From Psammoneis japonica (Eukaryota), in assembly GCA_008632985.1 (NCBI GenBank), contig QPGO01000095.1, forward strand, positions 59,681 to 123,680: a DNA stretch of 64,000 bases, read 5' to 3'. Every line of letters begins with the position of its first letter. The first letter of the stretch is position 1. Under the pieces are notes generated by a model, which was not told the DNA's origin, made no database searches, and worked only from the letters and a program-made list of their open reading frames with translations. The position numbers and the translations under genes were made by a program. Positions 5,926 through 47,329 of the stretch are shown here, one piece after another.

Positions 5926-5929
5926 CTGT

Positions 5930-17443: not shown

Positions 17444-17653
17444 AAGAACAGCGAATGACTGGATGTTTTGATGTGTGTGGTTATGCTGTGATTTTATTTC
17501 AATCGCAAGCGTACTTAGCGACTAAGAGTATAAAAATTGAATCTATCTCTGCCTTTATTCTGTCAATCTCGGCATATCTCTTATACTTATGTTTGCTTAT
17601 GTGTTGTGTGATCGTCTCGCATGGCAGTTTCCTTCGTAACCATGGAAACATGT

Positions 17654-20541: not shown

Positions 20542-22004
20542 ATGGCGGAGGACAACATCATTGCGTCTGGCAAAGCTGAGGATGCAGCAGCTCCGGAAGT
20601 CATGGCAGAAGTCACGGGCACCAAAGGCGCGGCGGCAGTTGCCATGACTGCACTTGGTGCCGAGGGAAGTGCCGAGGGTGTGTCCGTCGAGTCCGAACGC
20701 GCAAGGATGTCGGAGAAGCCGGCGCAGTCCCAAACTGAAAAGAGGGAGAAAGCCGAGCCGCCGGAGCCAACCTTTCAAATTTGTGGTTGGAATGAAGCAC
20801 AGCAGCTGGGTTGCACCACCGAGCAGCTGCTTGAGGCCGGTCACAAGATCGAGTTGGTGGGTGATCAGGCCACCTTTGTGAAACCGGAGGTCCTGCCTTT
20901 TTGCAGCGGCAAAAGCGAGGAGGCAGCCAAGCCCGCGGCCAAAGTGGTCGCGAAAGCAACGGCGGAAGAGGAAGAAGAAGGAAATCAATTTCCGGACCCC
21001 AACGAACCGTCACTCGACTTGTGGGACTGGGTGTTGCGGCACGAAAAATCCGACAATTTCCAGGAGTCCATGTGCCTGATGAAGGATGCGCCGAACAATC
21101 CCGACCTCTGGTTCCCCGCGCTGGGAGAACTGGGGTGCATCAGGAGCGACCCTGAAGCCGTCGCGAATGCTCACGGCAAATGCTGCAAGTGGGTGTGGAG
21201 GTGCCGCACGGAAGTCGGCGAGAGGGGCATCCCAGACTTGACGCCGAAGAGCAACGAAGTGTTCAAGACCACCGTCGAGGCTTTCGAAGCGGGGTGGTCG
21301 CTCGCACTGGTCCACCTCGTGAAGAGAGTAAGCACAGAAGTGTGCACATTTGGATGAGGTGCCGTGTCATCCAACCTGCGTTGTTTTGCCTCAAAAAGTC
21401 CATTTGCTCCGCAGGCCCCAAGGAGGTGGAGGTGGGCGAGCTGCGCGCATCGCAACGGAGGGGCGCAGGCATTGGTTTTTTTGCTTTGCGCCAGTTCCAG
21501 AAAGGCAGTGCGGTTGGAATCTACGTGGGCCCCAGGGTGCCCGGCACGACGAGGAGCTGCTTGTGGTGCGACCACGACAGCAAGTTTGGAGAAGACCACA
21601 GCGTGTGCTGCTCTGCCATCCGTGACAGCGAGGGCCACTGCGTCACAGTGGAGCCAAAACCGCTTGATTTTAGCGGTCCAGGGAACAAGAATTCCCATCC
21701 ACTCTACCTCGGAATGCACCACGTGAACGATGCCACCGAGTCGTTCAAGGACAAGAAGAAGATCAAGGCAAGCCAACACGTGGACAACAACTGCAAGTTC
21801 TACAACGACGGGTGCTTGGCAGTCACGAAGCGAATCATGCCCGGGGAGGAATTTCTCTGCAGATGCAATTTGGACGAATCGGAGAAGAAGAAGAAGAAGA
21901 AGAGGAAGGCGACGTCGGGTGCCATGAATCGGAAGAAGAAATTGCGTCCACTCCCCAAGTCGGGGAGGAGAAGCTCCACGTCTGGCAAAACGTCTGCCGT
22001 GTAG
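20542..22004 (+). pseudogene. SET-domain protein (putative lysine methyltransferase), frameshifted
   Basis: AGIGFFALRQFQKGSAVGIYVG ... LYLGMHHVND ... NNCKF.NDG.LAVTKRIMPGEEFLCRCN follow the SET motif order; the terminal Tyr appears as Cys. Poly-K tail. Confidence 0.7.
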
Positions 22005-25851: not shown

Positions 25852-26020
25852 GCCCAAAGCAGAACTCTGTCGACAGGGACCGGCGGACTCCAGGGGAGTG
25901 GGGTCAAAACCTAATCGAGAGATGTGTCTGCTTTCCGTTGCCTCAAGAGCACCCAAAGCAAAACTCTGTTGACAGGGACCGGCAGACTCCAGGGGAGTGG
26001 GGTCGAAACCTGATTGCGAG
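25852..26020. repeat. Two copies of a 99-bp-spaced direct repeat
   Basis: cccaaagca.aactctgt.gacagggaccggc.gactccaggggagtggggtc.aaacct at ~25853 and ~25952. Confidence 0.85.
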
Positions 26021-26504
26021 AAGCACTTGCTTGTTGTCGGGCTGCGAGCTGCACGTCCCAAACCCCCACACTGTCGAGACCGGCTGTAACTCGATCGCGA
26101 CAAGTGCTTGTCGTTGGTGGGACGACGCAGCAAGGCACGAGGCAGTTGCGACATGGTGTGTCTCAATTTGAAATGTGTTCAAAACACAATGACGGAAGTG
26201 TTGTCGCATTGTTTTTGTCTCCGCGGAGGGAGGATCATCCCACGGCAATCTCAGTGCGAGTTCTCGCGTAGAAGTGCATTGCGTGCCGTGCCAGCTCGTG
26301 TGTTTGAATTGCACGGACATGCAAGCACGGCAGCGATGAGAAGCAGGTCGAGATTCAAAACAAATTTTGCCGCCTGAAGGCGTCTCATTGTTTCAACGCG
26401 TCTGCACATCTGTTTGAAATGACTTTGTGCGTCGCTCCATGCGCAGGTAGAGGCAGCACGCAGCATTTGAAAATTTCGCGTGCACAGAGGGCACGACGGC
26501 AATT

Positions 26505-27472
26505 TTGCGCATTCTGCGCACGTCACAGTTTGGTTTGAAAACGCGACGTCTGGTCGAACCCGCTGCAAGCAAGGTTGATGTTGCCACAAGGTTGGATGCG
26601 ATGAACCATCGTTGCAGAAGTGTTGGGGAGTTTTGTCATCAAACGGCTCCGGACTCCGCGTTCCAGAGCAGGCATGTCTCCGGAGACGGAAGCGGATCTT
26701 TGCACGGCGGCGAAGTTGGCTTTGCTTTGAGCAGCGAAGTGTTTTTGAACGAACGCCTTCTTGGCGTGAATCACACCTGCGACACATCTGTCGACATGGG
26801 CAGGGGAGTTGCTGGACCCAGCATCGGGCTCAAGTTACTTCATCGCCGTTGCACCGTGGTGAGCATCGAGGCCGACCACGATCGTCACCAAGAGGCTGCA
26901 CGTTGGGCTCATCGTGCTGGCCTTTGCTCGAACGGTGGGTTGGAGTTGATCAACAAGTCATTCTTGGACGAGAGGCTGGCTCCTTTGTGGAAAAAGAAAG
27001 GACTCAAGGTGTTCTTCAACAACCACAACTCCCGCATGGTCGACGACAAGAACACACAGCAGAAGGCAGAAGCAATGCTTTCAAAGTTGTGTCGTGCTGG
27101 GACCGTGATGTGGTGGCACTAGATCCGCTGTTCGCGTCGTGTGCGGGAGAGTGGATGTGCGAGTCGTTCACGGCGGATTGCCATGATGGCGACTTTTTGT
27201 GGCACAGCGGAGACGTGAAACATCTCGTCTTCCACAAGCACACCAAGAAAGAGGAGACTTCTCAGTCAACCAGCCAGCACATGCGACGTCCCACTCCGAC
27301 ACACTTGGAACGGAAGCACTTGCCCGTCGCGAAATGGCCAATTTTACTCAAGAACTCAACTGGACTGTTTTTTTACTGTCACTGCACTAGACGTCACATG
27401 CTAGTTGCTCCACTCAATTCGCCATCGCTTCGTAGTGACGTAAAGTTGTCGTCGGAGATGGTGCATGCTTGA
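26505..27472 (+). pseudogene. DOT1-like class I SAM-dependent methyltransferase, frameshifted near 27105
   Basis: GSLHGGEV (cf. YGE), VDMGRGVAGP (motif I, DLGSGxG-like), VSIEAD, KSFLD, VFFNNH (cf. IFVNNF), then VVALDP...FLWHSG. Confidence 0.5.
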
Positions 27473-27559
27473 AGAGACAGAGGAAAGCTGAGTTGCAATC
27501 GACACTTAGTTTGCCAAACATTTGCAAATTTACACCACACCGGCAAAAAAAAAAACAAC

Positions 27560-28432
27560 TCAGTCTTCGTCACTGTCCTGAAGCACCAAGTCGTCATCGA
27601 CGTTCAGGTCAACTTCGCAGTTGAGCTCGACATCATCGTCGGCCTCTTCTCCAGCTTCTTCTGCCGGAGCTCCAATGAGACGACAGAGTTCCACAGGCAA
27701 CGACCCCTCGTAGAAGCAACTGTGAAGTGAGTTCTTGTTTTGGGCGTGCCAACCGATGTGAAACTGACCACCTTCCTTCTGAAGCTCGGCAATCGCCGCC
27801 TTGTTGCCGATCACTTCGGACCAAACAGCATCCTTCATCCAGAAGAAGTCATCTTCAACGAAGACCTCAGTGTTGTTCTCAGGGTCATCGTTGAGCTGCT
27901 TCGCAATGTGCTTCCCGAGGCCGCGCACTTTGGCTTCGGTTGGGACTTCTTCGAGGAAGATGAAGAAGAGACGCGCAGCGCAGTTCTTGGCGTTCGTCTG
28001 CAACTCGCCTTCGTGAACCCACCTGCCAGCGCAAGGGTGGAATCCGACTTGAACCGCCCACGGAGTCCTGCTGCGAAGGTTGTCAAACAAAACCTTCTCC
28101 GACCAAACATTGGTCAAAAGGGGATTCTTGGCTTGGAGACGAAAAACGACGCCTTTCTTGCGGCCGACAGTGACGGTGGCGCAGCGCAGGAGGGCGTCCT
28201 CATCGGAATGGCTGCCATCGTCAGAACCGGCGGATTTGGAAAGCTTGAACCCATGCTTGGCAAGGCAGTCTTCCGGTTTGAGGTTGTCGTCGGTCAAGCC
28301 ATTGGTCTTGCGGGGCGGACTTGGTTTCTTCAACAGAGCATCAGAAAACTTCGTCTTTGCCTTCTTCTGTTTGGTTTTGGCAACTTTGGCTTTCGCAGCC
28401 GGGGAGGTCGTTGTGTTTCTTTTGCATGCCAT
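27560..28432 (-). CDS. Hypothetical protein (basic N-terminus, acidic tail), probable element cargo
   Basis: Open ~290-codon frame with protein-like composition and a single Tyr. Confidence 0.55.
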   Translation of the reverse strand: MACKRNTTTSPAAKAKVAKTKQKKAKTKFSDALLKKPSPPRKTNGLTDDNLKPEDCLAKHGFKLSKSAGSDDGSHSDEDALLRCATVTVGRKKGVVFRLQAKNPLLTNVWSEKVLFDNLRSRTPWAVQVGFHPCAGRWVHEGELQTNAKNCAARLFFIFLEEVPTEAKVRGLGKHIAKQLNDDPENNTEVFVEDDFFWMKDAVWSEVIGNKAAIAELQKEGGQFHIGWHAQNKNSLHSCFYEGSLPVELCRLIGAPAEEAGEEADDDVELNCEVDLNVDDDLVLQDSDED

Positions 28433-28908
28433 CGAATCAGTCGGAGAGAAATTGTGGGAACAAAAAGTGCGATCATCCAGATGTGCCAAGAAAGACCCAG
28501 CAAAGCTGCGCACATCATGCCAAGGAGAACTGGCAACGTCAGCAACTAGATCCAAACACGTCGAACTGCAACAAGGCAACCTTCCAGGTGTCAGCACTTG
28601 CAAGTGGTGCATGGATTCAATTTGAACAAAACAGATGCAAGGATCGGAGCATGCAAAGTCGCACTGAGTTTGCTGAAAATGCGTAAAATCACGCGCAATT
28701 CCGTCCGTGCTTCGTGTGCATTTCAGCCGTTGCTGCCGCGTAGCCAAGGTGGGCCCATCACCCATTTGGAGGATTCGCGCGCACTTTGGAAACACGAATG
28801 ACGTCAATCGCATTGTCGCTGCCACACGACTAACTCAACTGCCCCGCCACTCGTTAAAACGTGATTCTACAGAATTTACGTAAAGCTGCGCCCACCACCA
28901 AGATTGCC

Positions 28909-29011
28909 GAAACAACTTGAACAAGATCCGAATCTTACCCCATGGAATGTTCAGAGCAGATGGTCAAAACAACTTGAACAAGATCCAAATCTCATCCCAT
29001 GGGATGTTCAA
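28909..29011 (+). repeat. 57-bp tandem duplication (KQLEQDPNL.PW.VQ x2)
   Basis: Seen directly. Confidence 0.85.
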
Positions 29012-29249
29012 CGTCGACGAAACCAAGCAGGATGTCATGCGTCTGGTGCAAAGAAGGACGTGGGAGGAACGCACATGTCGCTCTTCCATCGAGGTGAAAG
29101 AGGCACACTTTCGTCTCACTTTTTTGTGACAGAACCTTTGCGCAAAGGGAAACGAAAAGCATCCAACTACAGTGATTGGGCCACACCAATCGCAGTTCTC
29201 AGTTCTCACAGTGACCTGGCAACGCAGGTTGTGAGATGATGCACAAGCT

Positions 29250-29830
29250 CAGCTGCGGTGACTGGACAACACCAGTCGCAGCTCTCACAGAGACCTGATC
29301 GCACAGGTTGTGAGAACACGACACAACGCTGCGGTGATCGGACAGCACTGACGCAGTTCGTCAAGCAACTAATTCACTTGGCTGCGGTGACTGGACGACA
29401 CCAGTCGCAGCTCTCACAGCGACCTGATTGCACAGGTTGTGAGCAAACAACACAGCGCTGCACCTCGCAACGTAGGTTGTGAGATGACGCACAAGCTCAG
29501 CTGCGGTGACTGGACGACACCAGTCGCAGCTCTCACAGAGACCTGATTGCACAGGTTGTGAGAACACGACACAATGCTGCGGTGATCGGGTGGCACCGAC
29601 GCAGTTCGTCAAGTGACTGATTGGCTCGGCTGCGGTGACTGGACAGCACCAGTCGCAGCACTCACAGTGACCTGATTGCACAGGTTGTGAGAAGACGACA
29701 CAGCGCTGCGGTGAACGGGTGGCACCGACGCGGTTCGTTGATCAACTGGACAGAACCACTGCAGTGACTGGACAACACCAGTTGCAGTGCTGCAGGTGGT
29801 GAGAAAACACACATCGCTGTGGTGATTGGA
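29250..29830. repeat. Tandem ~120-130-bp repeats upstream of the Rep-helicase ORF (about 5 copies)
   Basis: gctgcggtgactggac.caccagtcgcag at ~29252, 29381, 29500, 29629 and 29760. Confidence 0.9.
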
Positions 29831-29932
29831 CAGCACCGATCGCAGCTTCACGGTGATCGCACTGAAAAAACAACTGTTTTCACTGAGCAACTTCTTGAAA
29901 TTTGTTGAGTCAAAGTGTCAGCTTAAATTAAA

Positions 29933-32900
29933 ATGGACGAGGCCAACTCCCGTGTTTGTAGTGCAATCAACAGAAAGTTTGAGATGCTTTTTCTACATGG
30001 AGACGGAGAATTTAGACCACACGCATGTTCAGTCTGTGACGTTCTGCTGAAACCTAGAGAAGTTTGTTGCTTGCCGCTCGAAACATTGGAATCAGCAAGA
30101 AACTCACTCACCCCTTCAGACTGGAACAGCGCATCTGATCGTCTCAAGTCCTGCTGCACTGTAGAGCATGAAGACACTGATTGGATCAAAGACCTGCCAC
30201 TTTCTCCCCGCGCCCAATGCGCAGTGCAGGAAGACAGACGACGCGTCGACGGATTCACTTGCTGCAGCGAATGCCGAAGAAGCCTGGGAAGAGCCGTCAC
30301 GCCAATGTGCGCGACAGCGAACAACCACTGTTTCGGTGCCCCGCCGCACGAACTGTTGTCTCTAACCGAGGTAGAATTGGCAATGCTCACACCAGTGAAA
30401 ACACACGGATGCTGCTTCAGTTGCCTTGGCGGCAAACAGAAGAAGCTTCAGGGAAGTCTGACACACTGCAAAGTCAAGATACAAAGCATCGTAAGAACTG
30501 TTGTGCACTTCGACGTGCTGAATTTACATCAGAATGTGATTGCACTGATGACTGGAAAGATGACTCCGGAGCAAAGACAACTTGCGCGTTCAAAGAACAG
30601 AATTAGGACGCACCACATGCCAAGGGCGATGGAATGGCTGTTGTGCCACAACCAAGAGTGGGTGTGCCAACAGACAAATCTAGATGAAGTCAGGCGTAAT
30701 CTGCGGAATCCCGCACTTGTCGACAGCACCAGCGAAGAAGAAGGAGAAAATGCAAACATTGAGACCTCAGAGTCATTTCACATTTGCTTTCCTGATGGAA
30801 CCATGTCTCCTGCGACCGGTGGTCAGTGCAACCTGGGCTGCTTCAAAGATCTTGTGCACGAAGCCACTGCCAACGGATTTGATTTAGAGGTGCAAGCACA
30901 GTTGTCCAAAGAATCTGCGAGTGATTTCAAAGGCAACAACTTCGTCAACGCGTGTCTGCTGCAGTTTCCTTTTGGCAGAGGAGGAATCAATGAGACGAGA
31001 ATGAAGAAAGACGGAAGTCTTGCAGATGGCACCAACCTTGCACACTGTGCCGACCACTTGGCACGGATTTCCCAGCCTCACTTCCACGAGCAGCTCTTCG
31101 TGTTAACATGCTGCAACTTGACAATGAAGCAAAGGATGCTGCAGAGCGCAGGGTGGAAAGTCAGGGACAAGAATCAGGCTGCACAGTTTGCAAACGAACC
31201 AACAGTGGACGATGTGGATGGAGCTGTTTGTGATCGCAACTTGGGCAAGAGAAGAGATTGTGGACTCGGGCACCACTTTTTGCGCGCACTCGACGTTGCA
31301 TCTGCGTCTCTGCCACACAGCAACGAAGCAGCAAAGAAAATGAGGAGAAACGCCGAAACTTGTCAGCATCATTTTGGTCAGGGTGGCATTTTCTTAACCG
31401 TCAGTCCGGACGATGCAAATTCGTTTCTTGTGCAACTGTGCTTGGGTGTCATCCTGGACCCAAACGAAGATGTGACACAACTGACGGACGAAATTCTTGC
31501 CAGCAGGGCCAAGCAACGTAATGAACTGCATCTAAAGATTCCCGGTCTAACAGCCTTTGCATTCGAGTGCTTGTTTGACATTGTGACAGAAGAGGCAGTG
31601 GGTTGGGATCTGAGCACTGACCAACCAAGAGAAAACTTTAACTTCTACATTGACAGGCCAGCCGCATTTTTAGCCGCAGTTGAGGAGCAGGGACGTCTGA
31701 CAGTGCACGGACACATGCAGATCTGGTTCGCATTGATCAACAATGCAAGAGAGAAACTGCATTTGCCAATGAGACAGATCCAACACAAAGGTGCTGAGCA
31801 CCTTGCCAACACAGTTCAGAAGATCTGCAGCACGGAATTAATCTGTGGCGAGGACTTCAGCACCAACGCGTTGCGCGAAGCATTCGATCATGACTGCACA
31901 GTGCCAAAAATGTGTCACACCTCTCCAAAAGCAGCAGACGACCAACAGCTGAGAAACCTGAGGCACAAAGACGGCCAGCAGTCGAAGAACGGAATGTTTG
32001 CTTGTTGTCGTCACTGCACCAAGCACTGGACAAACGTCGAGTTTGTAGAAAGCTTTTTACAGTCACGGCACCGTGCACCTGGCCTGACTCGCCATCCAGA
32101 CAACCATGCAAAGCGACTAAAAGCAATGTGTGTGCAACACCAGCGAAGTGGTCCGCAAGGGACAGTGGGGGCACACATGCCGGACGCAGCTTACAACCAT
32201 CACATGCACGTTACGAAGTCGTGTTTTCCCAAATGCGCAGAGTTACGTAAAATGCGTAAAAAAACCCCACACGAGGAACTGGACACGCAGTTAAGGAAAA
32301 GGAAACGAGAGGAGCTCAAACTGGGTGACTGCCGTCACAGGCAACCAGCTGCTTCGTGTCCAAATAATTTGGCAAGGAACGCAGATGACACTCAGACAAA
32401 GTGGTTCAGCTGGGATGGAACTTTTGCGCATCGGTGCGTGAAGGAAGTTGTTCCGAAGAGGAGAAAGTGCGATGCTTTTCAAAACGTGTCGTGCCCTGCA
32501 ACAAGCAGATCAAAACTGACACGCAACACAAACATTGCTTCGTTGATGCCTGGACCGTCTGCTCAACACACGATCAAGTACATCCTAAAAGACACCCAGA
32601 AAGATGACACTGCATCGTACGACGAAGTGCTTCGAACTGCGAACAGGATGGCAACGGAATTACGGAAACATGCATCTGATGCATCGGAAGCAATCAGACG
32701 TCTCATGTGGGGTGCTTGCTCGCATGACAAGACGAATGTCATTGGACCACCACTTGCGTCTTACATGACAAGGAACGGAAGCCGTTTCATCGAATCTCAT
32801 TTGACCGCATGGTGCCCCTTGAAAGACATTGTCAGCACACTAGAAAGAGACGAAGTGTCTGCGACTGTAGCCCATTTTGGCGATGCACCGTTCTTCCAAT

Positions 32901-35584
32901 GCCAGGTCTTGCACCACCTGTGTCGTCCAACAGCACTGGAGAATCTCAGTCCATTTGCGTTTTTTGGTGAGTGCGAAGTTCTTCGCAACACAAGGAAAAA
33001 CGAACACGGCATGATGATGTTCGACAACAGAGCGCACAGGCACCCGTCTTGTAATTCAACGAAGAACAAGTTTCTTCAAGGTGTCAGACAGCGACAGCAA
33101 CCGCGATTGTTGAAAGTGCTTCAGCACGATCTTCCTGATGCAGCCAAGTTTGGCAGTTGCCTTGCAGATCCACAGCAACCAACAACACTGGACAAAGAAT
33201 TGTGCTGCAAGTTGGCATTGGCCTTGTTTGCGCCTTGCAGAACAATGACGGAACTCAAACCAATGGCCCACACATGCCTGCATGAATTCCAACTCTCCGC
33301 AGCAGCCGGTGTCATTGCAGAGGAAAACTTGAACTTCTTGCAGAACCTGCAGGATGCCAAGTCCAACTGCCTTCGTCTCAAAAGTGCATCTGACGATCTG
33401 CAAAGAAAGACGGAGCAATTTAGACCTGCTGACGTTGCGTTTGACTGTTGCGAAAGTGACGAGGAAGAAGGTCTTTCAGGCGCCGTTCAGGGTCAACTGC
33501 TGGATGCACTCTTGGAAGAAATGGCAGAGCAGCCAGAAGACGATGACATTGGGTTGAGCGACCAAGCAGTTGTTCCTGCGCATTTGAGCGGCAAACGTGC
33601 AAGACAGAAAGGTTCACACATGGGTGGTTGCAAATGCTTGGCAGACATGCACACTGACCCACCAAACAAGGAAAGCCAGGTCAATGAACGACAACTTTTT
33701 GAGAATCTAGAGGGCGGCGATGACACCGACGAGGAAGACCAGAATGAAGGAGTGCAACAACACATCCACAGCAGACCACTGTCAAGAGACGACATTGTTC
33801 GAGTGATGCTGACTAGAACGCAAAGAACAAGAAGGTCGTTTGAGGACATGACAGGTTTGGAAGAACACGTCGATGTACGTCAAGCAAACGGATCTGCAGC
33901 AAGCATCGTAGACTGGGCTGGGAAAGCAAGACTGGACAGGCAACAGCAGCGTGCCTTTGAAATTCTGGCAGGAACCTTTGTGCTCACTCACTGCCAAGAC
34001 GCTCTTCAAGACGAGACGTCACGCAATGGACTCAACAGGAGAAATGGCAGACACGAATTCGCAACAAACCTTCGCCGATTGAAGAAACTCGTGGAAGTGC
34101 AAAGACGTGGAACGTTGCAACTTGTGTGTTTTTTACATGGTGCAGGTGGAAGTGGCAAATCAACCACAACAGACCTCGTCGTGGAATGCGGAAGAGAGTG
34201 CTGCTCGCTTGTTGAGCAGCCGTTCACAACAAGCACAATCAGAGTGACTGCACTGACCGGAGTGGCTGCGACTGTTCTCAAAGGGGACACAATCCACCGA
34301 GTTGCATGCCTCATGAGAAGAAAGCAAATGACCGAAGAGCAAATTGAAGCATGGTCAGACACGAGACTTTTGGTGGTAGACGAGATTTCTTTTGCAAGCA
34401 AGAGAGAACTAGAAAAACTCCATGAGAATTTAACGGCATTGAAGAGCGAATTGAGCAAGCCGTGCGGTGGTGTGAACATTGTTTTCGCAGGTGACCTCAG
34501 GCAACTAGAACCAGTCGGAAAAGGAGTGAAACCACCACACAAAGATGCATGTCCTGAGTTTCACGAGTGGATCAACTGCTGCGTGGAACTTCGTGGTGTA
34601 CACAGGTTTAAAGACGATCCATCATGGGGAAAACTGCTTGAGAGATTCCGTGCTGGTAAGATTGCAGTTGACGACATAGAGTGCATCAACGAACGAGCTG
34701 TTCAGAACGAAGATGATCTGCCCAGTGACCTCCGCTGTGCTGCGTACGCAAATAACGACAGAGATGCAATTGACACTGGCCCATTCGAAAAATGAGTAGA
34801 AACACTGCATGGAAGAGATGGAGACGTCCTTGACTCAATGTTGATTTTCAGTGACGACTTGCAGGTGCAGAATGGCACGAGACTCTGCCAACCATTTCCG
34901 GTTTGCAACAGCTTCTGGAACAACTGTGGTGAAGGAGACGTTGTCATGCAGTCAGGAAGAATGGATCCAGTCTTACGAATTTACAGAAGATGCAGAGTCA
35001 TGACACCTTTCAACGAAAATGCAGCAAACGGTCAAGCAAACGGAACGCAAGCCACTGTTGACAAGGTCGTTCTCAAACCAGGACAGGAACCAAGACTGGT
35101 GACTTTAGACAACAACATTGGCATTCCTGCTGCACTTGCCAGTCAGGTAGACCACGTTGCATTGGAACACTGCAACAAAAGCATCGACCCCGCGAAGTTT
35201 TTAGTTGAGCCAAAAACAAATGCTTTCAGGGCTTGCATCGCCAAGCCCAGCCTAATTTTAGAAGAAGGCGACAAACAAAGGCACACTTTCCAACTGAAGG
35301 CAACCCAGCTGCCGTTTGTCATCAACAATGCCACTGCAGGGCACAAACTGCAAGGGAGTGGAGTCCCGCAGTTGTTTGTGCACTCTTGGAGCTACACTCA
35401 GAATTGGGTGCATGTTGTGCTCTCCAGAGTAAAGACCAGAGAAGGGCTGTTCATGCGAAAGCCACTGAGCAAGGACCTGCGAAAATGCAAGGTCCCAGAA
35501 GGCTACGAAGCCTTGACAAGACTCATGAAGGAGAGAAGCGCCACGCATTTTTCTCAGCAACAGTGCGCAGAAATGTCAATGTAG
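29933..35584 (+). mobile_element. Helitron Rep-helicase (DUF6570-like region, HUH Rep, PIF1 helicase); one in-frame TGA at 34793-34795; hypermutated
   Basis: FGQGGIFLTVSPDD; VEEQGRLTVHGHMQIW (HUH); HTIKYILK (YxxKYxxK); GAGGSGKS; LVVDEIS; GGVNIVFAGDLRQLEPV; HRFKDDP; ANGT; HKLQG; VHVVLSRV. ORF 34838-35584 is in the same frame. Confidence 0.93.
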
Positions 35585-35730
35585 TGCGCAAACATTAGAT
35601 TAGGATGCTCAACCACTGCACAACTGTTTGGCGACCCCAACCGTAAAAATGCGGAAATTTCGTAAAATAAAATGTTTCGATTAGATCAGCACATTGCGCA
35701 GAAATCTACACATGCGTCACACAACGTCGA

Positions 35731-36201
35731 ATGGATTTTAACCAACAAACCAAGAAACGCGAACGCAACCGTCACAGAAAACGCAGCAACAGAGAAAACA
35801 TGGATTTGCAACAACAAACAAAGAAGGCAGACGAGCCAAAGAAAACTGGTGAGGACAAGAAAAAGGTGCAGACATGTGCGGAACTTCTTCAGTCATTGAT
35901 GAACAAGGAAGACGAAGAGGAGACTACCTTGGAAGAAGCAAGAGCGGCGTTTGACCTCACCTCGGGAAATTTTGATGTCACTTCTGCACTTGTGCAAGAC
36001 AACACGACAGCGGACAGTCATCATGTGGAAACAACGGTCGCACCCAAGGATGATTCAACCATGGAGGAGCTAAAGGCAGCACATGCAGCGGCGATTCCAC
36101 AGCGGTCGGGGAGATTTTTCACCGAGGAGGAGATGGTGGAGCAGGAGAAGGAGCAAGCAAAGTCCCTTCAGAAGAAGTGTGGCCAGAAACAATGGAATTG
36201 A
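35731..36201 (+). CDS. Hypothetical charged protein downstream of Rep-helicase
   Basis: 156-aa ATG ORF, K/E-rich, no Tyr. Confidence 0.4.
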   Translation: MDFNQQTKKRERNRHRKRSNRENMDLQQQTKKADEPKKTGEDKKKVQTCAELLQSLMNKEDEEETTLEEARAAFDLTSGNFDVTSALVQDNTTADSHHVETTVAPKDDSTMEELKAAHAAAIPQRSGRFFTEEEMVEQEKEQAKSLQKKCGQKQWN

Positions 36202-37139
36202 GCAAGTTGCAAATGACTGTTTGGCAAAGACAACCGCATCAATGCGCAAAATGCATGCACATGGACTTTCACTTAAGCCGCCGCGGATTGAGTGTGGCCA
36301 CAAACAAGGACTGACTGTTTGGCAAAGAAACTGTGACAATGCGTAAATTTCGTACATTTCCACATTCACTTAATCCAACGCAGCTTGCCTTGGACAACAT
36401 CAACGTGCACAACTGTGCAACATCAACATGCACAGACAGCCTCATGAAACCTCACAGAAGACAGAACGGTCAGAAGCAAAACAACCAGCACCATGCACTG
36501 ATGCATGTCAGTCATGTCACGTGGGTCACGCAAAAGTGTGCACTGAAACAACCGTCATGTGTTGTGATTAATTCGAACACCCGGCGCAAAATGCAGCAAA
36601 ATGACTGGTGCAGGCAATCGTCATGGCTCCATTTTCTGATGGTGGCGAGGGCGGCAATCCAAAATCTTTCAGTTTCAGACTTCGATCTAGAGAGTTCCAC
36701 CTAAAAGAGGAGGAGCCAATTGCACTCTTCTGGACAGTGCTGCGGAGGGCGGGCAGAAACTGCTTTTGCCGACCTGTCGAACGATTTTCGATTTCGGCAC
36801 TTGCACACATCATGCTCGCTCCGTGATGGCATCTGCGCAAACTTCCGAGCAAGTGCCGATGCAATCAAACGCAAAACTGCACCCCAGCAGATGAAAGAGA
36901 GCTCAAGAGCCAGTGCCACAACAACATCCTCCCACACGGTCACAACCTTCTAAGACATGTGTCACCCCTTCTCGTGGAGAGAGAGAGAGAGCCCCCTGCA
37001 CAAATCTGAACCGTTCCGCACCAACGCCAGATGGGACCACAATTCACTCTCAGTCCCCGCAAAATGTCAAGTCCATTGCCGATTCATCTAAACTGAAACA
37101 TCTTCTCATGTGGAGAGATGAAACACACACAAAACCCAG

Positions 37140-40100
37140 ATTTGGAGACCACCAGTCCAGCTGCACTGGCCTGGGAGGCCAGCACATGTGATCATGAGCT
37201 GCAAGTGCACAGCCTTGGTCACAAGGACACCACCATGTTCACACACCACAGGCTCCAATGGCTCTCTCTCCAAGAACAACATTCACAAGCAAATCTGCCA
37301 AAATTTGTGTCCACATCTTCCTTTCCAAATTGAAGAATCCCAGCCACAACAGCATCTTGAGCCACATGGCGACTGGCCCCGCATTGTGCTTCTTGTGCAG
37401 TGCAGACTCCTGGGCAAGCTCACATTCTTTGCCACTCCTTGGTTCCCACACAATGCACATTTGCTGGACCTTGAAATGGAGTGCCAAACATCCTCAACTT
37501 GCACTCAAAAGCCACAATCAGATCCTTGCAAGAAGTTCTCAAAGCCACCTGCTCACTTCCAAAAGCTGCTGATTCAACTGCACTCTCTGTCTCTTGCCAA
37601 ACCAGCCAATTAGGGCATTGTTCACACAAAGAAAATAGCACCTGAGTGCAGACTGCAGGTGATGACATTCCCAGCACAGTTTGCATCAACAAATGTGGGG
37701 ATGGCTGTGCAGCTTCAGTGGGGGCTGAGCACACTCAGTGGCAGTGCTTCTTCAACAGTGCTGCAGAATTCTTTCCATTTGGTTGAGCAGTTGAAGATGG
37801 GCTCATGGGTGGCTGGGTCCTTTTGGGACCACAGCTGAGCCTTCCAACATTTGTGAACAATTCTTCACACAAGCAAAAACACAAGTTAAAGCCTCAAGAT
37901 GTGCTCCTTCCTTGGATTGCCCAACACTCAGAGAGAACAGAAATTTCATGATGAGTGTGCTGGTGCACCCCAGCTCAGCTGCACCCTTCTGCAAATCCCA
38001 GCCAACTGCAAGCAATTGTGCAACAATGGACCCAGCCCCAACTCACCCCATGTGCCCAACTCCAGCTCACACTTTGATGGCAGCACACTCACCACACTGT
38101 TCTTCACACCACCTTGTCATTTCCATGTTCTTCAAGCAACAACTCAACAGCCTCAACTGCATTCTTCACAGCACAGGTCCTTGGAGAATGGTCATGAGCC
38201 CAAATTGCCCTGCCATCTTCCATCTGAGCCTTCTCAACATCTGCTCTGAGGTGCTGTGCTGCAGCTTTCCCTTTGGTGCCTGGCTTGATTTTGTGATCTC
38301 ACAGTCTCCTTTGTGGCTGTCTCACCCCAGTGCAACACAATCACAACATCATCCACATGGATGCCATCAGCATCTCACAGTGCTCACATCCATTCTCATG
38401 TGCAGCTCTGCTCAAACACAGACATTGGAGATTCGCTTGAGTTGGCTCAAGCTCTCTGGGTTGTGAAGAGCTGCAGCAAGTGGTGATTGTCACAAGAACC
38501 CAGCACTTTTCAAGCCATCATACAATGCTCTCACCATGATCAATGCACATTGTTGCATCTCTCTGCATTCCTTCTCTCCTTCAAACCATGTCTTCTCAGC
38601 ACATGTGGTGCACCAAGATGCACATTCTCTAGATCAATCATTGCAACATCTGCTTTGTTCAATGCTGCCAAAGTGAACCTGAGCCTTGAGCTCTTCCTTG
38701 ACACTTCACTTGAGTGGACAGTTGGTGGTGGTGGCACCTCTGTTGTGTGGCTGCCTGTGATGAATCTTTCCTCATGAGTGAAGTCCATCTTGATGCCAAA
38801 TGCCAAATGTGGATTTCTCAACAACCTCGTGCAGCTCTTCCCTTGCCTTGCTTTCTTGGGAGTCTCCACCTGATGCCTTTTCCAAGATGCCTTCACCTTT
38901 GTCATTTTTTTTTGTCAACAGCATGCACCCACCAACCCATCCCCATTTCCAGGTCTGTCTGCAGAGAGCTTCATCAACTGATTTGAGCAGCCTGACCCCA
39001 CACTTGTGAGTCATTCTCCAGCACTTTGACTCAACCTTCAAGATGAACCAGCTCCTCTTCTGCCACAATGTGGTTGGCACTCACCAAGCAAATGCTGGTT
39101 CATCACCAACTTGATTTGCCACCACAGGCTCCACAACTTCAATCCTGAGGCACTTCAGCTTTGCCCATGATGTGCCACAATCCTTCCACACCACCAGAAA
39201 CTCCCACCTTTTGGTCATGATCTTGTGCTCTTGACCACCTTGCCTGACATCACGTGGGCACCTTCCTCCTTTGGCCCTGCCCATTCTGTCTTTTGTGATG
39301 GTCCTTTGCCTCAAGGTGCAGAGAGAATGAAACACTGGTTTGCATTGTTGTCAACCTGAACAACCACATTCTTGGCAATGATGTCAGCTGAGCACTTGTC
39401 TGTCATGCTGTTGGCATTTTGGGACCTTGTGCTCCCTTGTGCCAAATGGCTTCTCCCAACTGGCTTTCCATCCTGACCCCTGGCTTGTTCAATTGCCGCA
39501 CTGTGGTGCCACCTGCCTTTCATGCCCACATCTCCTCAAAGATGAGCCTCATGTTCAGATGCTGGTGTGTCAGTGGCCTGTTCATAATCATCACAGGGCC
39601 TTGTTTCATCAATTGACATGTCTTGGTGCTCTTCCACAATCTTTGTGCTCAGCTCCAAAGTTGTTGTCAATCTCAGCATTGTCCAACACAAATGCTGGCA
39701 CTGCAGCTTTGTTGCCTTCCAGTGCAAAATTTGAGCCATCTGGTTGTTTCTCCAATCTCTCATTGAAGTGCTCCATCTAGACTCTCTTGTCTGGCTACAT
39801 CCAAGCCACCTGCATCACATGTTTCATCAGTGTTTTTGATGCTGCCTTCCCTGACTCCATGACAATCTAATGATGCACATCCAAGCCAACCTCACACAAG
39901 ATTCTCAACACTCATCCAAGTCTTTTCCAGGGTCATCTGCCATGTTGGGCTTGTCCAGTTGATCCTCTTGCCAGACCAGGTCATGGGGAATTCAAAATCA
40001 AGATGCCCGTCAATCTCCCCGGTGCTTGTCCAGTGGTGTTTGAAACTCAAGGGACACACACTTGTTCCTGTGACACACGAAAGGGGGTGAAAAGGCTTCA

Positions 40101-42100
40101 TCTGCTTCAATGCCAAATTGTTGAGTGTCACAAGGGTCATCACACATTGGTGTGCATTGTGCACGCATCATTGATTTGGGTTGATGAGAAAGTGATCCAT
40201 GTCAACTCCAATCCAAACCAAAGAAGCACTTGATTGCCAGCTGGCAAATGGTCATGAGTTGTCCCCCAGTTTGTTCCTTCTGCCTGTGCTGATCTCAAAC
40301 TCCAAGCACATTGCTGCCTGGCAGTCTCTTTCTCCTCTGCTCCCAAATCTCTGTCATGCATCTGCACCAACTTTTTGATTGACTCATGAGCACTCACAAG
40401 CTTGCGCCACACATGCCTGCCTGCCAATGAAGCTTGGTTGCTGCTGCCAGCCATCCTGCTGAGTGAGCTGCCCAGCTGGGGTGGGCCAGCAAGTTGTCCA
40501 GACCAGTGGCCACAGTGTGTTGTGGTTTGAGAGTCCATGGCCACCCCTTCCACCATGGCTCCCATGTCTGCACCCACCATGACAGTGGCTGCAGCCTCCA
40601 CCACCAAAGAGGTCTCCATTGTCTTGTGCTTTGAATGATGCTGAGCCTCCAGTTAAGGCTCTGGGTGCAAGCACAAGACTTTTGCAAAACAGAAAGCACA
40701 TTGTGAGCTCACAAAATTGAGAAGTGATGTTGGCTGACAATGGCTGCACAAGCCTGGAGACAAGCACCACCACTCTTCATGGCCTCAAGCAATGTCTCCA
40801 CCTTTTGCTGGTCTGATTTCTGCTCATCTGGGTCTTTCTCTGGGTCAGCCAATGTGCTGGTTGACTTTTGTGTGTGATGCTCAAACAACAAGTTCCACTC
40901 ATTCTTGCAGCACAAGGTTTTGACATGGGCCAATGCCAAGTGAGTGCACTTGCTGAGCTTGCCCTGTCCACCACAACAGTCTGCCTGTGCCCACAGAATG
41001 CATCTCTGTCACCACTCTCTGGAGCACTGTGTGGCTTGACCCATGCCCAAGCTGCAATGTTGATCAAGTGCTCCTTTGGCATCCAATGAACAGCATGACT
41101 GTCATCTTCAAATGCAGCCCTGTCAACTGGCAGCTGGCACACATGCACTCCTCTGCATCATCCTTGACAAATTTGTCAAACGCAGCAGGGCTGCAGATTA
41201 AAAATGTGCTTTGTCCCCAGCCACACCACAAAATCCTCCTGGACAAATTTGGCTTGGCCACTTGCTGGGGCATCTGATTCCAACCTGTCTTTTTGTGATG
41301 CACTCAAGCTCAAGCCCCACATTCATGGCTGCTCTTGATCAAACCAAGGCACTGCCATGGCTTGCCCACACTTCTGATGATGCTCAAGACACCGTTGCAC
41401 CACAAAGCCCATGCAAACTCTCAATCTCTACTTTGCCAAGCTGCTGCACCCATCAACTCTGGCTCATCATTCACAACTGCAATGTTGTTTGAGGCAGAAA
41501 GACCTTCCATGGTGTGCCAACTGTGCCCTCATGACATGACCGGGTGCTGGGATGCCACACACCTGCAGAGCAGCACCCACATTTGGTGCTGTCATCACCA
41601 GAGCTGCCACAACACTGCTGCCACTGCTGCAGCCCCACAATGTGAAATGAGGCAGACAAGCTCATGTCCAATCTGGGTGCTGCACTGTGACCCCAGGAAT
41701 TCTGGGTGAAGGAGACCTTTTTTCCATCTGGATGATGCAACAATGGGCTTGCACTGCCAGCACACACTGGGGTGGCCAGCCCCACACAATTTTGTCAAGT
41801 TTGTTGAACACATGCCCAGACATGCATGCATGATGCTGCAGCAGCCCTGCACCCACTGTTGGTGACTGCTGCTGTGTGGGGAGAACATGTCTGTCACACA
41901 TGATGCTCACTGCTCTGGCTGTTCCACGCCCACAAAAACAAAAAAATGAGGTCCTGCCAGTCTCAACACTTGATGATTATGATGATGTGCATGCATGAAA
42001 CCCAGCACAAAACTCACACACAACAGCAGCCCATTTGATCAACACAAGTGATGGCTGCAGTGCCAAAGTCATCAACATGACCTGCTCACATCTGCTTTTG
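37140..42100 (-). mobile_element. Degenerate Ty1/Copia (CoDi-type) retrotransposon with gag, chromo-like region, RT and RNase H
   Basis: Relics: AFGIKMDFTHEERFITGSHTT...VHSSEVSRKSSRL...DLENVHL (RT); WEFLVVWKD.GTSW...DEPAFAW; SKCWRMTHKCG; ESALHKKHNA (RNase H); AWAWVK (gag). Confidence 0.88.
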
Positions 42101-45100
42101 CACTCGCATGTGCGCGTCTGCCCATGCAACTGCACAAAGAGCTCCAACAAAGCAGGAAAATGCCAGCACAATCAACAGTGACACCACACAGACAAATGAC
42201 TTGCTGAGTGGCTGGTGCTGCTGCAACAACCTCCTGCACATCTCAGAAGTCAGTGACTTTCTTCTCATGGAGAGAGAGCGAGCCATCTGTGCACTTCAAT
42301 TGAAGCCATGAAGGAACCATTGGCAGACAGACCACTGCACCCCAATTTGAAATTTATTTTCACACCAAACAAACACATGCTGATGTGATGCTGTGTGGCA
42401 GACAAACAACAGTCAACAAAACAGCAAAGACTTCATGATCCATGGCTGAATGATGACTGGCCCACAACTCAAACTCTTTTTTTGACTTTGAGCCAAAGCA
42501 AGAACATTGCAAATCATCAAGTGTCATTTCCACTTCGGCACAAAGAGAGTCAAATGCTTGCTGCAGCAGTCAGATTTCAAATTCTGAGCAATGCAGCAGA
42601 GTCAACAGTGAACAAGGATTTGCTGTCATTTTTTGCCATTGCAACATCAATCCAATCCAGGCAACAAATGTGCAAAATAATTTGCACCCCACATTCTCAT
42701 TTTGAACTTTGATGCATCAGCATTTGTTGATGCACAACAACAACAAAAGCATGCTTTTGTGTGTCAGGCCACAAGCTCTGAAGTGCATGTTCACACCTGG
42801 ATTGAACTTTTGGGGAGCTTGATGTTGAAAGCAGCCATTTGTTTGAATTTTGTCATTTTGCATTGTCCACAAACTGGGATTTCAGCTGAGTCGAGTGGAT
42901 GTTCGACATGTTTCAAAGCACCAAAATTGATGAACAATTAAGGGCTGTGGTTTTACAGTGCTTTGCACCACAGAAACATTGACAAAACAGTTGAGGACTG
43001 TGGTTTTACAGTGCTTTGTGCCAAAGAGACACAAAATGGCAAACAGGTTGACAAACAAGAAGTGATGGGGGGTTTGCAATTTTTCTAAATTGTGAGAATG
43101 AAGATTGCAGCACTGCCTGATGACTGACCAACAACCAGAAGAAAGAAACAAGAAGTGACTCTTCTCTTTGCCCTTGAATTGACAGAGATGAGCACATGCC
43201 AAAGACTTGAGGAGAACAATGCATTCTTGAATGCCCAAAATGAGAAAAGAGAGTTGATGCACCTCACTCTTGTCTTGAACCTTAGACCAAGTGGTGGCAT
43301 TCTCATGGTTTGACCACCCCACAGCTGGTTGAGAGGTTGATGGCATTTTCTGTGACTCACAGCTTGAGGCATGTTGGTGCATGAACACATGTGCAGCATC
43401 GCCTTTGGAGCATGCTGCTTGCTGGAACTGGAAGGGGCAGTTCTCTGTGCCCAGGCTTTGTCCATCAGCCACTCTGTCACAGAGGCATCTCTGTTGCTGC
43501 ACCTGCTGCTTCTTTGTCAAGAGAAAGTCCAGAGTCAAGGCCACTCCCCAGCTGTTGACAAAACAGCACCTGCAAAACCTTCATGCCTGTGTCCCCCCCC
43601 ACAGAGCAGCTCTTGGGGACAGTGCCGCCCACATGCTGGGCTGCAATCAAGGCTGATTTCCAAGCTGCAAGCTGAGACATTCAACCTGGGGGTTGTGAGC
43701 ACTCTCACAATTGCTCACAAGACATGGGGCAACAGGCCCATGGCAGCACTGAGTTCTTCCTGCACAGCTCACCATGGGTGCACCCAGACCTCCAGAGTGC
43801 CAGCCCAGCTCACACCAGGAGTCACCCTCCTTGCTGCCACAACAGTGCTTTGTGCCATTGGGAGAGCACAGACAAGCTGGCTGGACTGGGGGGCTGCCCA
43901 ACCCCACACATCACAGCCCCTCACAACCAAAAGCACCAGCTTGAGGGTTGCCACTGCTGCAAAGATCCCAAACCAAAGCTGGTGGTGGTGGCAGGAGCTC
44001 TTGTTGGCACCCCTTGCTGCTGCAGCAGCTGGTGAACAATGGTGTGCAAGCCTGCTCAAGTTTCTTTGCCAGACTGTGTGGGGCTGCTCACTCCTTTAAA
44101 TGACAAGCACAAAAATGCTGTCAAGTGGGCCATTCTCTCATGTCCAAACTTGCCCCCATCCATTGCCAACACACAAATGTGTGAGTGGCCTGCCCTCAGT
44201 TTGGCTCTGTCCTCAACCACTTGATGGGATGCAAAGAAGCTGTTGCTGTGTGGTGACAGCAACAGGTTTTCCCTCATTGTTGACCCCACCCATTTTTTCC
44301 CTGCATGTCCATTTTGTTTTTGCTGGAGGCAAGCCTGATGTTTGTGTGTGGACATGAACTGAACACATTGTTCATTCACTAAATTAAAATGTGTGAAAAA
44401 TGTGTGTGCTCAGCCATGAAGAGCCTCTGTGCAATGATGCACCTTCTGACACAAATGCTTGACATTTCAAATTTCCCATGACTTGTAAAAAATGCAACAC
44501 ACACTCCATCAACAGCCACAAACTCACCACAACACTGACACATGTCAACAGATCACAATTGGTTTCACATGCACATGCCATGCTGTGCTTCAAAATTGAT
44601 TGATTGCAGCAAAAACAGCTGAACAAATGTTCAATTTTTGCCCATCACTTTTCAACTGCACAAGTCAACAACAAGCCTGTCACACTCTCACACGTCAATT
44701 GTGCCACACATGAGTTCACAAGATGCAACACAGTGTTGATTGTTGTGGCTTTTGAAGGTGACACCATTGAGAAAATGGTGACCACAAAGTTGCCATGGTG
44801 AGGTGATTTCAGTGGTTTCTGGCTTCAGCACACCAACAGGCAAGTTTGCACTGAATCTGAGTCGTGCTTGTTGAGTTAGCATGGCTGCCACTTTGTGCAT
44901 CATGTGCCCACCATTCTCAGTGGTGGGGCAGGCAGCAAAAAGAAAATTGTGATTCAGCAAAAAAAGAAACTCAGATTGTTGACACAGCACCTTGCTTGCT
45001 GCTGCAAGCAGGAGAGCACCCATTTTTGCTGGCCAATGCATGGTCTGAAACAAAAGCATGTGCTCCCAAACAACAACCCATTGTTGGAAACACTGCTCAC

Positions 45101-46019
45101 ATTGAGCTGAGCTTGACTTGTGATGTGTCAGCAGCAGAGACAGACAAAAAAAAGACTGGGAGGCTCCTCAAGGGCATGTTGCCAGCCACAGACAAGCACG
45201 CAAGTTCATCATGCACCCAGCCCAGGCACTGGCACATTGGGCACAACACACAGTTGTGGGTGGAGAGCATGATGCCATTTGCAAGTCAAGCAATGTGCTC
45301 CCAAAGCACACATGATCCACCAGCAGCTGGGAGGAGCCTTCCTCAGCAAAGAGGGCAGCATCTTAGAGGTGCAGTCACCCTGGGCAACAAAGAGCCAACA
45401 AAAATCTGGTCCTGTTTGTGTGGTTGAAGTGAAGAAGCTCTTGGCAAAGTTGGGTCCAAGAGTTCAAGCATGCCAAGCATGTGACCTGAAACATGCCAGC
45501 AATGACAACTCTCCTCTGCACATGCCAGCACAGGGTCTGAAGCAAGCAGCCAGGCTTGCAAGTTTTTTTTCTCCCTGGCCCTTCCCAAATGCAGCCTTTG
45601 AGTCAATGTGTGGCACAGCTTGAGCAGCCAAATCATGCTGCTGGAGGAGAGCACCTAGAGGAGCAGTGAGGAGCTGGCTCAGCCAGTGCCCTTAAAGCCA
45701 GTCTGGCATGCTCAGCTTGGCAACACACACCACTCTGTGTCACATGGTTGCTCTGCAGCAGCTGCAATGTGCGCTGCCCCAGATGACAAGGAAGAAGCCA
45801 ACAAATCTCTGGCCCTGCTCCCATGTCAATTTTTGTGTGCGCTCGGTTGCAGTTGTCAAAAATCCCCTCCTTTTTCCCCTTTTCCTGTTGTCCGGCCATG
45901 AACATAAAAAATTGCCAACAGAAGGCTTCCTTGTTGTCAACTCAAAAGAAATGAAACAAGCCCTTCAAGGGGGCACTGATGACTGTGCTCACGTGAAACA
46001 TGAGAAATTTCCAGAAATG

Positions 46020-46925: not shown

Positions 46926-46975
46926 AAAACACTTTGACATCACTTGCCTGGGTGGTCAGTGAAAACTTTGACATT

Positions 46976-47288: not shown

Positions 47289-47329
<41 letters not shown>

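Follow-up and report, generated by a model that had tools for sequence, protein, structure and literature searches.

Why should the few tyrosine codons left in a transposon protein all be TAC? The question is raised by a Helitron Rep-helicase (29933-35584, forward strand) in a 64,000-nucleotide stretch of the Psammoneis japonica assembly (contig QPGO01000095.1; hereafter the window, whose numbering is used throughout). TpA in this window has undergone A:T-to-G:C transitions that are restricted to repeats, amount to one change per TA, arise from either strand, and follow a graded four-base context. The exclusive use of TAC is read here, with somewhat better than even confidence, as the coding read-out of that context, namely of the flank preference of a repeat-directed mutator that turns TpA into TpG or CpA, has a T-A-Y-Y footprint (Y, pyrimidine), and is probably a DNA adenine deaminase. 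Of the parts of this reading, we hold the flank preference to be real with high confidence; an adenine-deaminase chemistry we rate at slightly less than an even chance.

The Rep-helicase is one frame of 1,883 codons, split by a single in-frame TGA (34793-34795, forward strand) into two stop-to-stop frames (29927-34795 and 34796-35584) that abut in the same frame. Open reading frame (ORF) 1 (29933-34795, forward strand) comprises the TA-eroded N-terminal 1620 codons and matches in Pfam Helitron_like_N (PF14214, E = 4e-8), PIF1 (PF05970, E = 1.6e-14), DUF6570 (PF20209), and AAA_30; a Rep domain (Helitron_like_N) and a PIF1-type helicase are thus joined in one protein, as expected of a Helitron Rep-helicase. 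ORF2 (34796-35584, forward strand, with an ATG at 34838) is by itself without a Pfam match and aligns with Helitron relatives. There are 129 relatives of the Rep-helicase at E <= 0.001, with lengths of 1850-1975 amino acids (aa) and identities of up to 45%; intact ones, at about 1870-1915 aa, are as long as ORF1 and ORF2 taken together, and ORF2 is therefore the C-terminal part of the helicase and no separate gene. The protein contains 0.4% Tyr, 4.6% Cys, and 4.4% His, against 2.8-3.8%, 1.8-2.9%, and 2.4-3.2%, respectively, in the first ten relatives, and eight of the nine most conserved Tyr columns are now Cys or His; to judge from its sequence, the protein is dead.

The gene lies in a repeated unit (26001-36800, forward strand, the left end being nominal) which, by the observed/expected ratios (o/e) of TA and CG, is partly TA-eroded and nearly intact in CpG. 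In one public sequencing run, summed contig depth reaches about 2000-6800 across the interval 26000-36826 and drops to 71-81 outside it, a difference that indicates a many-copy repeat and is not a copy number; the right edge of the repeat falls between about 36695 and 36826, a unique contig covering 36695-38000. Self-comparison of the 64-kb window yields tandem arrays only, without a second Helitron copy.

Codon counts bear out what the first-pass annotation had described for this gene: all nine Tyr codons (six in ORF1, three in ORF2) are TAC, none is TAT, and none is preceded by A (ttcTAC, gctTAC, aagTAC, tcgTAC, tctTAC, gcgTAC, attTAC, agcTAC, ggcTAC). Also borne out is its remark that TAT is essentially missing among the surviving TA. 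The 69 TA left in 29933-35584 include no NTAT and four ATAN, the 5' bases being A 4, C 17, G 23, and T 25, and the 3' bases A 23, C 20, G 26, and T 0. With the region's base composition as the null, the probability of finding no T at +1 is 8.6e-8, and that of finding four or fewer A at -1 is 6.9e-7; set against the host-like DNA of the window (920 TA, including 259 NTAT and 281 ATAN), the same 69 sites give Fisher probabilities of 6e-10 and 1.5e-6. The whole unit 26001-36800 has 114 TA, with no NTAT and five ATAN (P = 8e-16 and 3e-11 against host), and its non-coding 5.1 kb have 45 TA, with no NTAT and one ATAN. Elsewhere in the window, NTAT and ATAN account for 5 and 6 of 60 TA in other partly eroded DNA, and for 2 and 6 of 53 TA in heavily eroded DNA.

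A second baseline comes from the DNA of 80 related metagenome Helitron loci, of which the 68 of at least 2.5 kb were used. The share of their TA that is ATAN or NTAT ranges from 0.28 to 0.67 (o/e 0.59-1.34, median 1.06); in this Helitron it is 0.044, about 0.10 of the expectation from composition. The enzyme-like trinucleotide preference proposed in the first-pass annotation is hence both supported and extended: TAT (equivalent to ATA) is erased far more completely than TAC, TAG, or TAA, the NTAN counts are not uniformly lowered, and host genes do not use TAC exclusively, five named host ORFs having TAT 42 times and TAC 48 times.

By dinucleotide composition, the window is a mosaic. Host-like blocks have a TA o/e of 0.44-0.89 and a CG o/e of about 1; partly eroded blocks, among them the Helitron, have 0.08-0.28 and 0.68-1.11; heavily eroded blocks have 0.00-0.07 and 0.03-0.44. 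TG and CA go up where TA goes down, TpG/CpA reaching an o/e of 1.4-2.6 in eroded DNA, and eroded DNA passes abruptly into intact DNA, TA o/e differing 10- to 30-fold across the boundaries; genes are spared. CpG decay follows behind TA erosion, as seen in the Helitron, where CG is still at 0.68-1.11 while TA is at 0.08-0.28. The late-stage comparison is provided by the heavily eroded repeat DNA at 37001-50000 (TA o/e 0.02-0.07 and CG o/e 0.03-0.44 in the o/e scan, with a run of N at 46976-47288) and by a second such block at 3001-8000 (0.00-0.05 and 0.07-0.42); the former adjoins the Helitron, and the step at which TA and CG both fall to near zero lies close to the right edge of the repeat, at about 36.8 kb. 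The host-like controls are 51001-59000, with GT8 and GT90/sulfotransferase genes (TA o/e 0.51-0.72, TAT and TAC both used), and 9001-18000, with VTT-domain and ubiquitin-conjugating-enzyme genes (TA o/e 0.44-0.74). TA erosion deletes TAA and TAG in all frames, and eroded DNA is therefore packed with long, meaningless ORFs on both strands. The interval 28000-38000 is overlapped by 24 ORFs of at least 100 aa, and the Helitron frame has a single stop across its 1,883 codons despite coding for a dead protein.

The context of the loss is graded. With strands pooled, and for host-like, Helitron, other partly eroded, and heavily eroded DNA in this order, the o/e of TAT is 0.67, 0.02, 0.05, and 0.01; that of TAC is 0.73, 0.20, 0.14, and 0.02; that of TAG is 0.54, 0.21, 0.20, and 0.06; and that of TAA is 0.51, 0.26, 0.18, and 0.08. 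The order T, C, G, A is alike at both stages of erosion. Logistic fits in which each TA is treated as two half-sites, and retention is expressed relative to A, extend the context by one base. Over all 227 mutated TA and against the host baseline, retention at +1 is 0.08 for T, 0.40 for C, and 0.79 for G, and at +2 it is 0.27 for C, 0.34 for T, and 0.60 for G; the three mutated classes agree in direction at both positions against this baseline. Position +3 has no clear effect in the 227 pooled TA, and small, inconsistent effects in single classes. When 22 relatives serve as the baseline instead, the Helitron gives 0.05 for +1 T, 0.58 for +1 C, 0.36 for +2 C, and 0.44 for +2 T, and the heavily eroded class gives 0.15, 0.18, 0.21, and 0.33. 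Survivors correspondingly carry A at +2 in 45-56% of half-sites, against 25% in host DNA, and TAAA, TAGA, and TACA are enriched among them.

Two further observations concern these contexts. Survivors contain an excess of TACG/CGTA, with G following in 29 of 68 TAC half-sites compared with 105 of 510 in host-like DNA; the target A may be protected by an adjacent methylated CpG. Among the metagenome relatives, TA o/e is also low, at 0.18-0.29, in L026, L027, L042, and L066; L026 and L027 have a CG o/e of about 1.2, 1.5-1.7% Tyr, and TAT:TAC ratios of 2:20 and 6:16, whereas L042 has a CG o/e of 0.06 and yet a normal TAT/ATA share of 0.54. Similar erosion may thus occur in other organisms, not always with the same flank preference.

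Anchoring on homologs allows individual changes to be followed. In an alignment of 60 relatives, the 44 columns with Tyr in at least half of the sequences are occupied here by 23 Cys, 9 His, 7 Tyr, 4 Phe, and 1 Thr; the 39 codons for Cys, His, or Tyr are TGC (20), TGT (3), CAC (8), CAT (1), and TAC (7), such that 32 of 39 have turned into Cys (TGY) or His (CAY). TAC itself is often struck, 20 of the 35 C-ending Tyr sites having become TGC, and its fate depends on the preceding base: TAC after A is retained at none of 11 sites and TAC after any other base at 7 of 24. CA outcomes make up 5 of 11 sites after A and 3 of the 17 sites otherwise changed.

The 5' side is read by NTA codons at columns of the same 60 relatives with at least 40% consensus. 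Where the consensus is Ile, ATA has become ACA eight times and ATG four times and is retained once, all eight Ile-to-Thr changes being ACA; at Val columns, GTA has become GCA 11 times, accounting for 11 of 13 Val-to-Ala changes, and is retained six times; at Leu columns, CTA has become CCA four times and is retained five times, and TTA has become TCA once and is retained nine times. The ratio of hit to kept codons thus runs 8:1 for ATA, 11:6 for GTA, 4:5 for CTA, and 1:9 for TTA (P = 3e-4 for the trend). This is the same order as above, because A, G, C, and T on the 5' side equal T, C, G, and A on the 3' side of the target A in its own strand.

Codon boundaries report on changes in the coding strand. 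Codons starting with A follow a T in 0 of 96 cases for AT, 1 of 110 for AC, 6 of 130 for AG, and 10 of 193 for AA in the Helitron, and in 38 of 176, 49 of 155, 11 of 99, and 29 of 235 cases, respectively, in host ORFs, giving retentions of 0, 0.03, 0.42, and 0.42. At a 50% threshold, 11 T-preceded boundary sites are informative for homolog-anchored A-to-G change, of which 10 are changed and one is kept, a number too small to tell the contexts apart; A-starting codons without a preceding T show this change in 0 of 132 cases for the AC, AA, and AG classes. The change is confined to TpA.

Copies of the repeat differ from each other at 290 places, 278 of them by transitions, including CpG-type changes; among the 40 of these places listed, selected by support, nine are paired CA/TG, and the rest are mostly of the CpG type. 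As opposite outcomes, CA and TG, occur at the same site in other copies, the copies were struck independently and on either strand. In the Rep-helicase, the outcomes at conserved Tyr columns are TG 23 and CA 9; runs of same-strand changes along the ORF number 13 by hand count, against about 14 expected, and reveal no clustering. A 171-bp tandem array (872-2326, forward strand), whose units differ by TA, TG, or CA at nine inferred ancestral TA sites, was scored over eight units: sites with a 5' A give CA 16 and TG 8, sites with a 3' T give TG 8 and CA 5, and neutral sites give TG 12 and CA 16, in the direction expected, although the units are non-independent parts of a 342-bp higher-order repeat. 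One TATA in this array appears as TGTG, TACA, or CATG in different units.

These considerations suggest the following course of events. The changing pair is the A:T of TpA, converted to TpG or CpA. On the strand bearing the A, T-A-T changes fastest, followed by T-A-C, with T-A-G and T-A-A slowest; a pyrimidine at +2 accelerates and an A at +2 slows the change, making T-A-Y-Y the susceptible and T-A-R-A (R, purine) the refractory word. TpA is palindromic and either strand is open to attack, which explains why a 3' T and a 5' A are both missing from survivors. The present Helitron copy is caught part-way, with TAT/ATA gone, about a fifth of TAV left, and CpG nearly intact, and the neighbouring repeats are older ones in which every TA context has been lost, and CpG too. 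Given the abrupt boundaries, and a preference two bases downstream that AT-richness does not predict, the agent would be an enzyme that recognises some four bases (-1 to +2); most likely, it would be a polynucleotide adenine deaminase acting on DNA, converting A to inosine, which is read as G.

Several points weigh against this reading. Those that concern its last step are that the sequence does not fix the chemistry, a change of A to G in one strand being indistinguishable from T to C in its complement, and that the adenine deaminases compared have other 3' preferences, amphioxus BjADAT2 acting on DNA at GAA (PMC10354150) and human ADAR1 and ADAR2 favouring a 3' G (PMC11276115), as far as the available parts of these two papers go. 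Both points give room to a thymine route, in which an enzyme would modify or remove the T of R-R-T-A, best A-T-A, for example by oxidation to 5-hydroxymethyluracil, and the product would be read or repaired as C. The flank order fits this route equally well, as A >> G > C > T at -1 and a purine at -2 on the T strand, and no adenine deaminase is known to have a T-A-T preference. We nevertheless consider the route unlikely, though worth keeping in view: the literature searched contains no paper tying thymine modification to T-to-C hypermutation at TpA, and the closest precedent, a preprint on the alga Bigelowiella natans (Mettrop et al., bioRxiv 10.64898/2026.01.13.699255), in its accessible text proposes adenine deamination.

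The remaining points concern the rates and the composition of the element before it was mutated. A single set of rates misfits some frames, because TAC across codon boundaries is nearly as depleted as TAT (1/110 against 0/96): about 1 of 35 expected T|AC boundaries survives, yet in-frame TAC not preceded by A is retained at 7 of 24 sites. The palindromic GTAC Tyr sites have gone to TG six times and never to CA, with three kept, which shows that the strands are unequally affected apart from any influence of context, and suggests that the coding strand is favoured. The nine TAC codons are weak evidence when taken alone, because the third base is C at 35 of the 39 anchored Tyr sites; with this usage, nine TAC arise by chance with P = 0.38, compared with P = 0.003 under host usage and P = 0.017 under that of L001, an intact relative (TAT 26, TAC 45). 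The products do not balance the loss, either. BTAT is about 9 per 1000 below either baseline, yet BTGT has gained only 2.5 and BCAT has lost 2, with BTGC at +13 and BCAC at +6 per 1000. The TGT/ACA gain expected of a host-like ancestry is missing, and the element was therefore probably TAC-rich and TAT-poor before erosion, so that part of the TAT missing from the ORF may be ancestral. Finally, the baselines stand in for a true ancestral sequence: one is host-like DNA, and the other consists of relatives whose identity does not exceed 45%.

A rival account has no flank preference at all, the element having used TAC and NAC, and few TAT or ATA, before mutation, by codon usage or ancestral composition. 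Besides the C-ending Tyr sites and the enrichment of TGC but not of TGT, this is favoured by those Asn and Asp codons that precede a base other than A, which are NAT 64 and NAC 92 in 29933-35584; the NAT share is 0.61 of the share in other Y-ending codons (NBT), below all 41 relatives (0.76-1.27). This low share is not explained by TpA erosion and could reflect codon adaptation of the transposon lineage. As a full account, however, ancestral composition is improbable. The non-coding part of the unit lacks NTAT and has a single ATAN in 45 TA, just as the ORF does; unrelated eroded blocks are equally depleted; none of the 68 related loci falls below an ATAN/NTAT share of 0.28; of at least 13 inferred ancestral ATA codons one is retained, against 9 of 10 TTA; and retention falls in the same order between the partly and the heavily eroded stage.

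TpA is the least stable dinucleotide step, and T-A-T might be the word most easily unstacked, so that spontaneous adenine deamination or replication error could be highest there in some chromatin state. That the preference is graded rather than all-or-none would suit such a non-enzymatic origin. The 10- to 30-fold steps in TA o/e at sharp boundaries speak against it, as does the protection conferred by A at +2, which is contrary to what melting of AT-rich DNA would lead one to expect; in Bigelowiella, the available text gives rates about 1000-fold over background, in some lines only (10.64898/2026.01.13.699255). We regard this origin as very improbable.

The first-pass annotation had linked the preference to N6-methyladenine (6mA) written in ApT by AMT1/MT-A70 enzymes, which would mark the A of TAT and render it mutable. 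In TAT, the A that mutates does belong to an ApT, and no flanking base accelerates the change more than a 3' T; in early-diverging fungi, moreover, 6mA-methylated genes are depleted of TAT motifs, according to the accessible part of a paper on this mark (PMC12695648). Against the link stands the ApT that does not overlap TpA (VATB). Its o/e is 1.19 for the ORF and 1.24 for the remainder of the unit, and reaches 1.52 and 1.50 in the two further eroded classes, compared with 1.18 in host DNA and 1.22 in relatives, AAT and GAT being likewise not depleted in eroded DNA; TpA is therefore required, and the 3' T merely accelerates. Nor is ApT needed, TAC, TAG, and TAA being lost as well and falling to an o/e of 0.02-0.08 in heavily eroded DNA. 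A weak effect of ApT outside TpA was considered on account of the low NAT share and of 4 in 24 Ile/Met-to-Val changes without a 5' T, and was rejected, VATB being undepleted even in the most eroded DNA. In the same paper, again within its accessible part, AMT1-dependent 6mA peaks at SATS and is lowest at TAT and WATW, lies on expressed genes while 5-methylcytosine (5mC) lies on transposons, and has "no obvious mutagenic effect", and the diatom Phaeodactylum tricornutum is listed with 5mC only (PMC12695648). As ApT is neither needed nor sufficient and published 6mA is lowest at TAT, the proposed link is unsupported, and we see hardly any likelihood in it.

The signature might also consist of systematic base-calling errors at a modification of TpA in repeats, given that the only public run with this stretch may be the source of the assembly and hence affords no independent check of the sequence. 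Such an artefact is scarcely credible. The signature has been measured as new mutations in Bigelowiella lines, by the available text of the preprint (10.64898/2026.01.13.699255); here, 886 of 3243 aligned contig pieces are at least 99% alike, a given site reads TG or CA depending on the copy, and the coding outcome is coherent, with Tyr replaced by Cys or His at 32 of 39 conserved columns. The least probable alternative, ADAR-like RNA editing copied back into DNA, is disfavoured by the fact that a Helitron moves as DNA, that tandem arrays and non-coding parts are struck too, and that the same sites are struck on both strands in different copies. The 5' U preference of ADARs would fit the TpA requirement, but ADARs favour a 3' G (PMC11276115, in its available part), whereas the order here is T >> C > G.

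Two other genes of the window deserve mention. The first-pass annotation had noted three Tyr codons of a SET protein, all cTAC. The codons are as described in a 282-aa ORF in another partly eroded block (21156-22001, forward strand), outside 29933-35584, which is probably the one meant, being the sole ORF of at least 120 aa with exactly three Tyr codons, all cTAC. Its SET identity found no confirmation: Pfam yields nothing for the ORF, even at E <= 10, its sole PDB match, a SET-type methyltransferase, is not significant (E = 1.9), and none of the 153 different window ORFs scanned contains a SET domain. General domain scans of the same 153 ORFs also yield no deaminase domain. The host GT8 gene (56236-57609, reverse strand) has its closest named relative in a Nitzschia diatom, at 50% identity, and the next ones in the chlorarachniophytes Bigelowiella natans and Amorphochlora, at 31-32%; the likeness to Bigelowiella is probably a coincidence of database sampling.

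A flank signature is a handle for matching a mutator to an enzyme; the signatures TC and WRC served in this way to match APOBEC and AID as mutators. The order T-A-T >> T-A-C > T-A-G >= T-A-A, together with the +2 rule, offers a concrete test for candidate deaminases, and repeats can be staged by the extent of their erosion, TAT being the first and CpG the last to go. A natural enzyme for A:T-to-G:C change in DNA with a defined context would be of interest to base editing. More speculatively, and as a tentative picture that we think may well prove wrong, diatoms would run a repeat-directed DNA-editing defence that reads T-A-Y-Y. As this word is unmatched among the adenine deaminases considered (BjADAT2 on DNA, human ADAR1/2, and the anticodon-loop context of TadA/ADAT), the enzyme at its centre would represent a new specificity class of nucleic-acid deaminase or be thymine-directed. 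Transposons would be in an arms race with it, this Helitron lineage, still spreading at the time, having shifted to more resistant words (TAC over TAT, few ATA, NAC over NAT) before the copy died.

Among known systems, the decay of 5mC at CpG gives the same TpG/CpA products and acts in the same repeats, but it works in the opposite direction, from G:C to A:T, and proceeds more slowly in this window. Repeat-induced point mutation (RIP) of Neurospora and other ascomycetes consists of repeat-directed, dinucleotide-specific transitions that kill transposons and spare neighbouring genes, and it makes TpA from CpA. The likeness lies in repeat-directed, dinucleotide-specific transitions, and the direction is opposite: RIP enriches duplicated DNA in TpA through C-to-T changes at CpA, whereas in the window TpA is depleted (o/e 0.02-0.25) and TpG/CpA enriched.

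TadA and ADAT2-ADAT3 act on an A with a 5' U/T in the anticodon loop of tRNA, and share with the mutator proposed here the change of A to I, the 5' T, and a comparable footprint spanning some four bases. The mutator strongly prefers T at +1; in natural tRNAs with A34, to our knowledge, G, A, or C follows A34, and never U. The member of this family characterised on DNA, BjADAT2, prefers GAA (PMC10354150, in its available part), and the flank order found here does not match it. ADARs are alike in changing A to I with a 5' U/T; they differ in that human ADAR1 and ADAR2 prefer G on the 3' side and act on double-stranded RNA, within the available part of the source (PMC11276115), whereas the substrate here is a DNA transposon in which a 3' G is unfavoured (retention 0.79, against 0.08 for T). 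AMT1/MT-A70 6mA has in common with the present pattern only that TAT holds an ApT; it is lowest at TAT/WATW, belongs to active genes, and shows no obvious mutagenicity, as stated in the accessible part of PMC12695648, and ApT outside TpA is untouched in this window. The T-A-Y-Y footprint makes it less likely that ADAT2 or an ADAR-like enzyme is simply moonlighting, and it speaks against 6mA.

The closest system is that of Bigelowiella natans, where inserts of nucleocytoplasmic large DNA viruses and virophages carry almost only A-to-G and T-to-C changes, all at TpA and leading to TpG or CpA; in the available text, hypermutation is confined to foreign DNA, and its suggested agent is an adenine deaminase (Mettrop et al., bioRxiv 10.64898/2026.01.13.699255). 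TpA-only hypermutation has so far been described in one preprint of 2026 on a chlorarachniophyte, the one relevant paper in the literature searched, which holds no description of TpA hypermutation in diatoms or of its flank preference. The main text of the preprint, to which the search was confined, contains none of the terms 'context', 'trinucleotide', 'TAT', or '6mA' and gives no flank order. New in the present analysis are the order of the flanks, the influence of the +2 base, the case against ApT/6mA, and the finding that the context fits neither BjADAT2 on DNA nor human ADAR1/2. The two settings differ: by the same text, the former is a chlorarachniophyte with viral inserts, in which new mutations were measured, whereas the present one is a diatom-like genome with transposons. 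Shared between them are the A:T-to-G:C transitions, the confinement to TpA, and the locality to foreign or repeated DNA, with genes spared.

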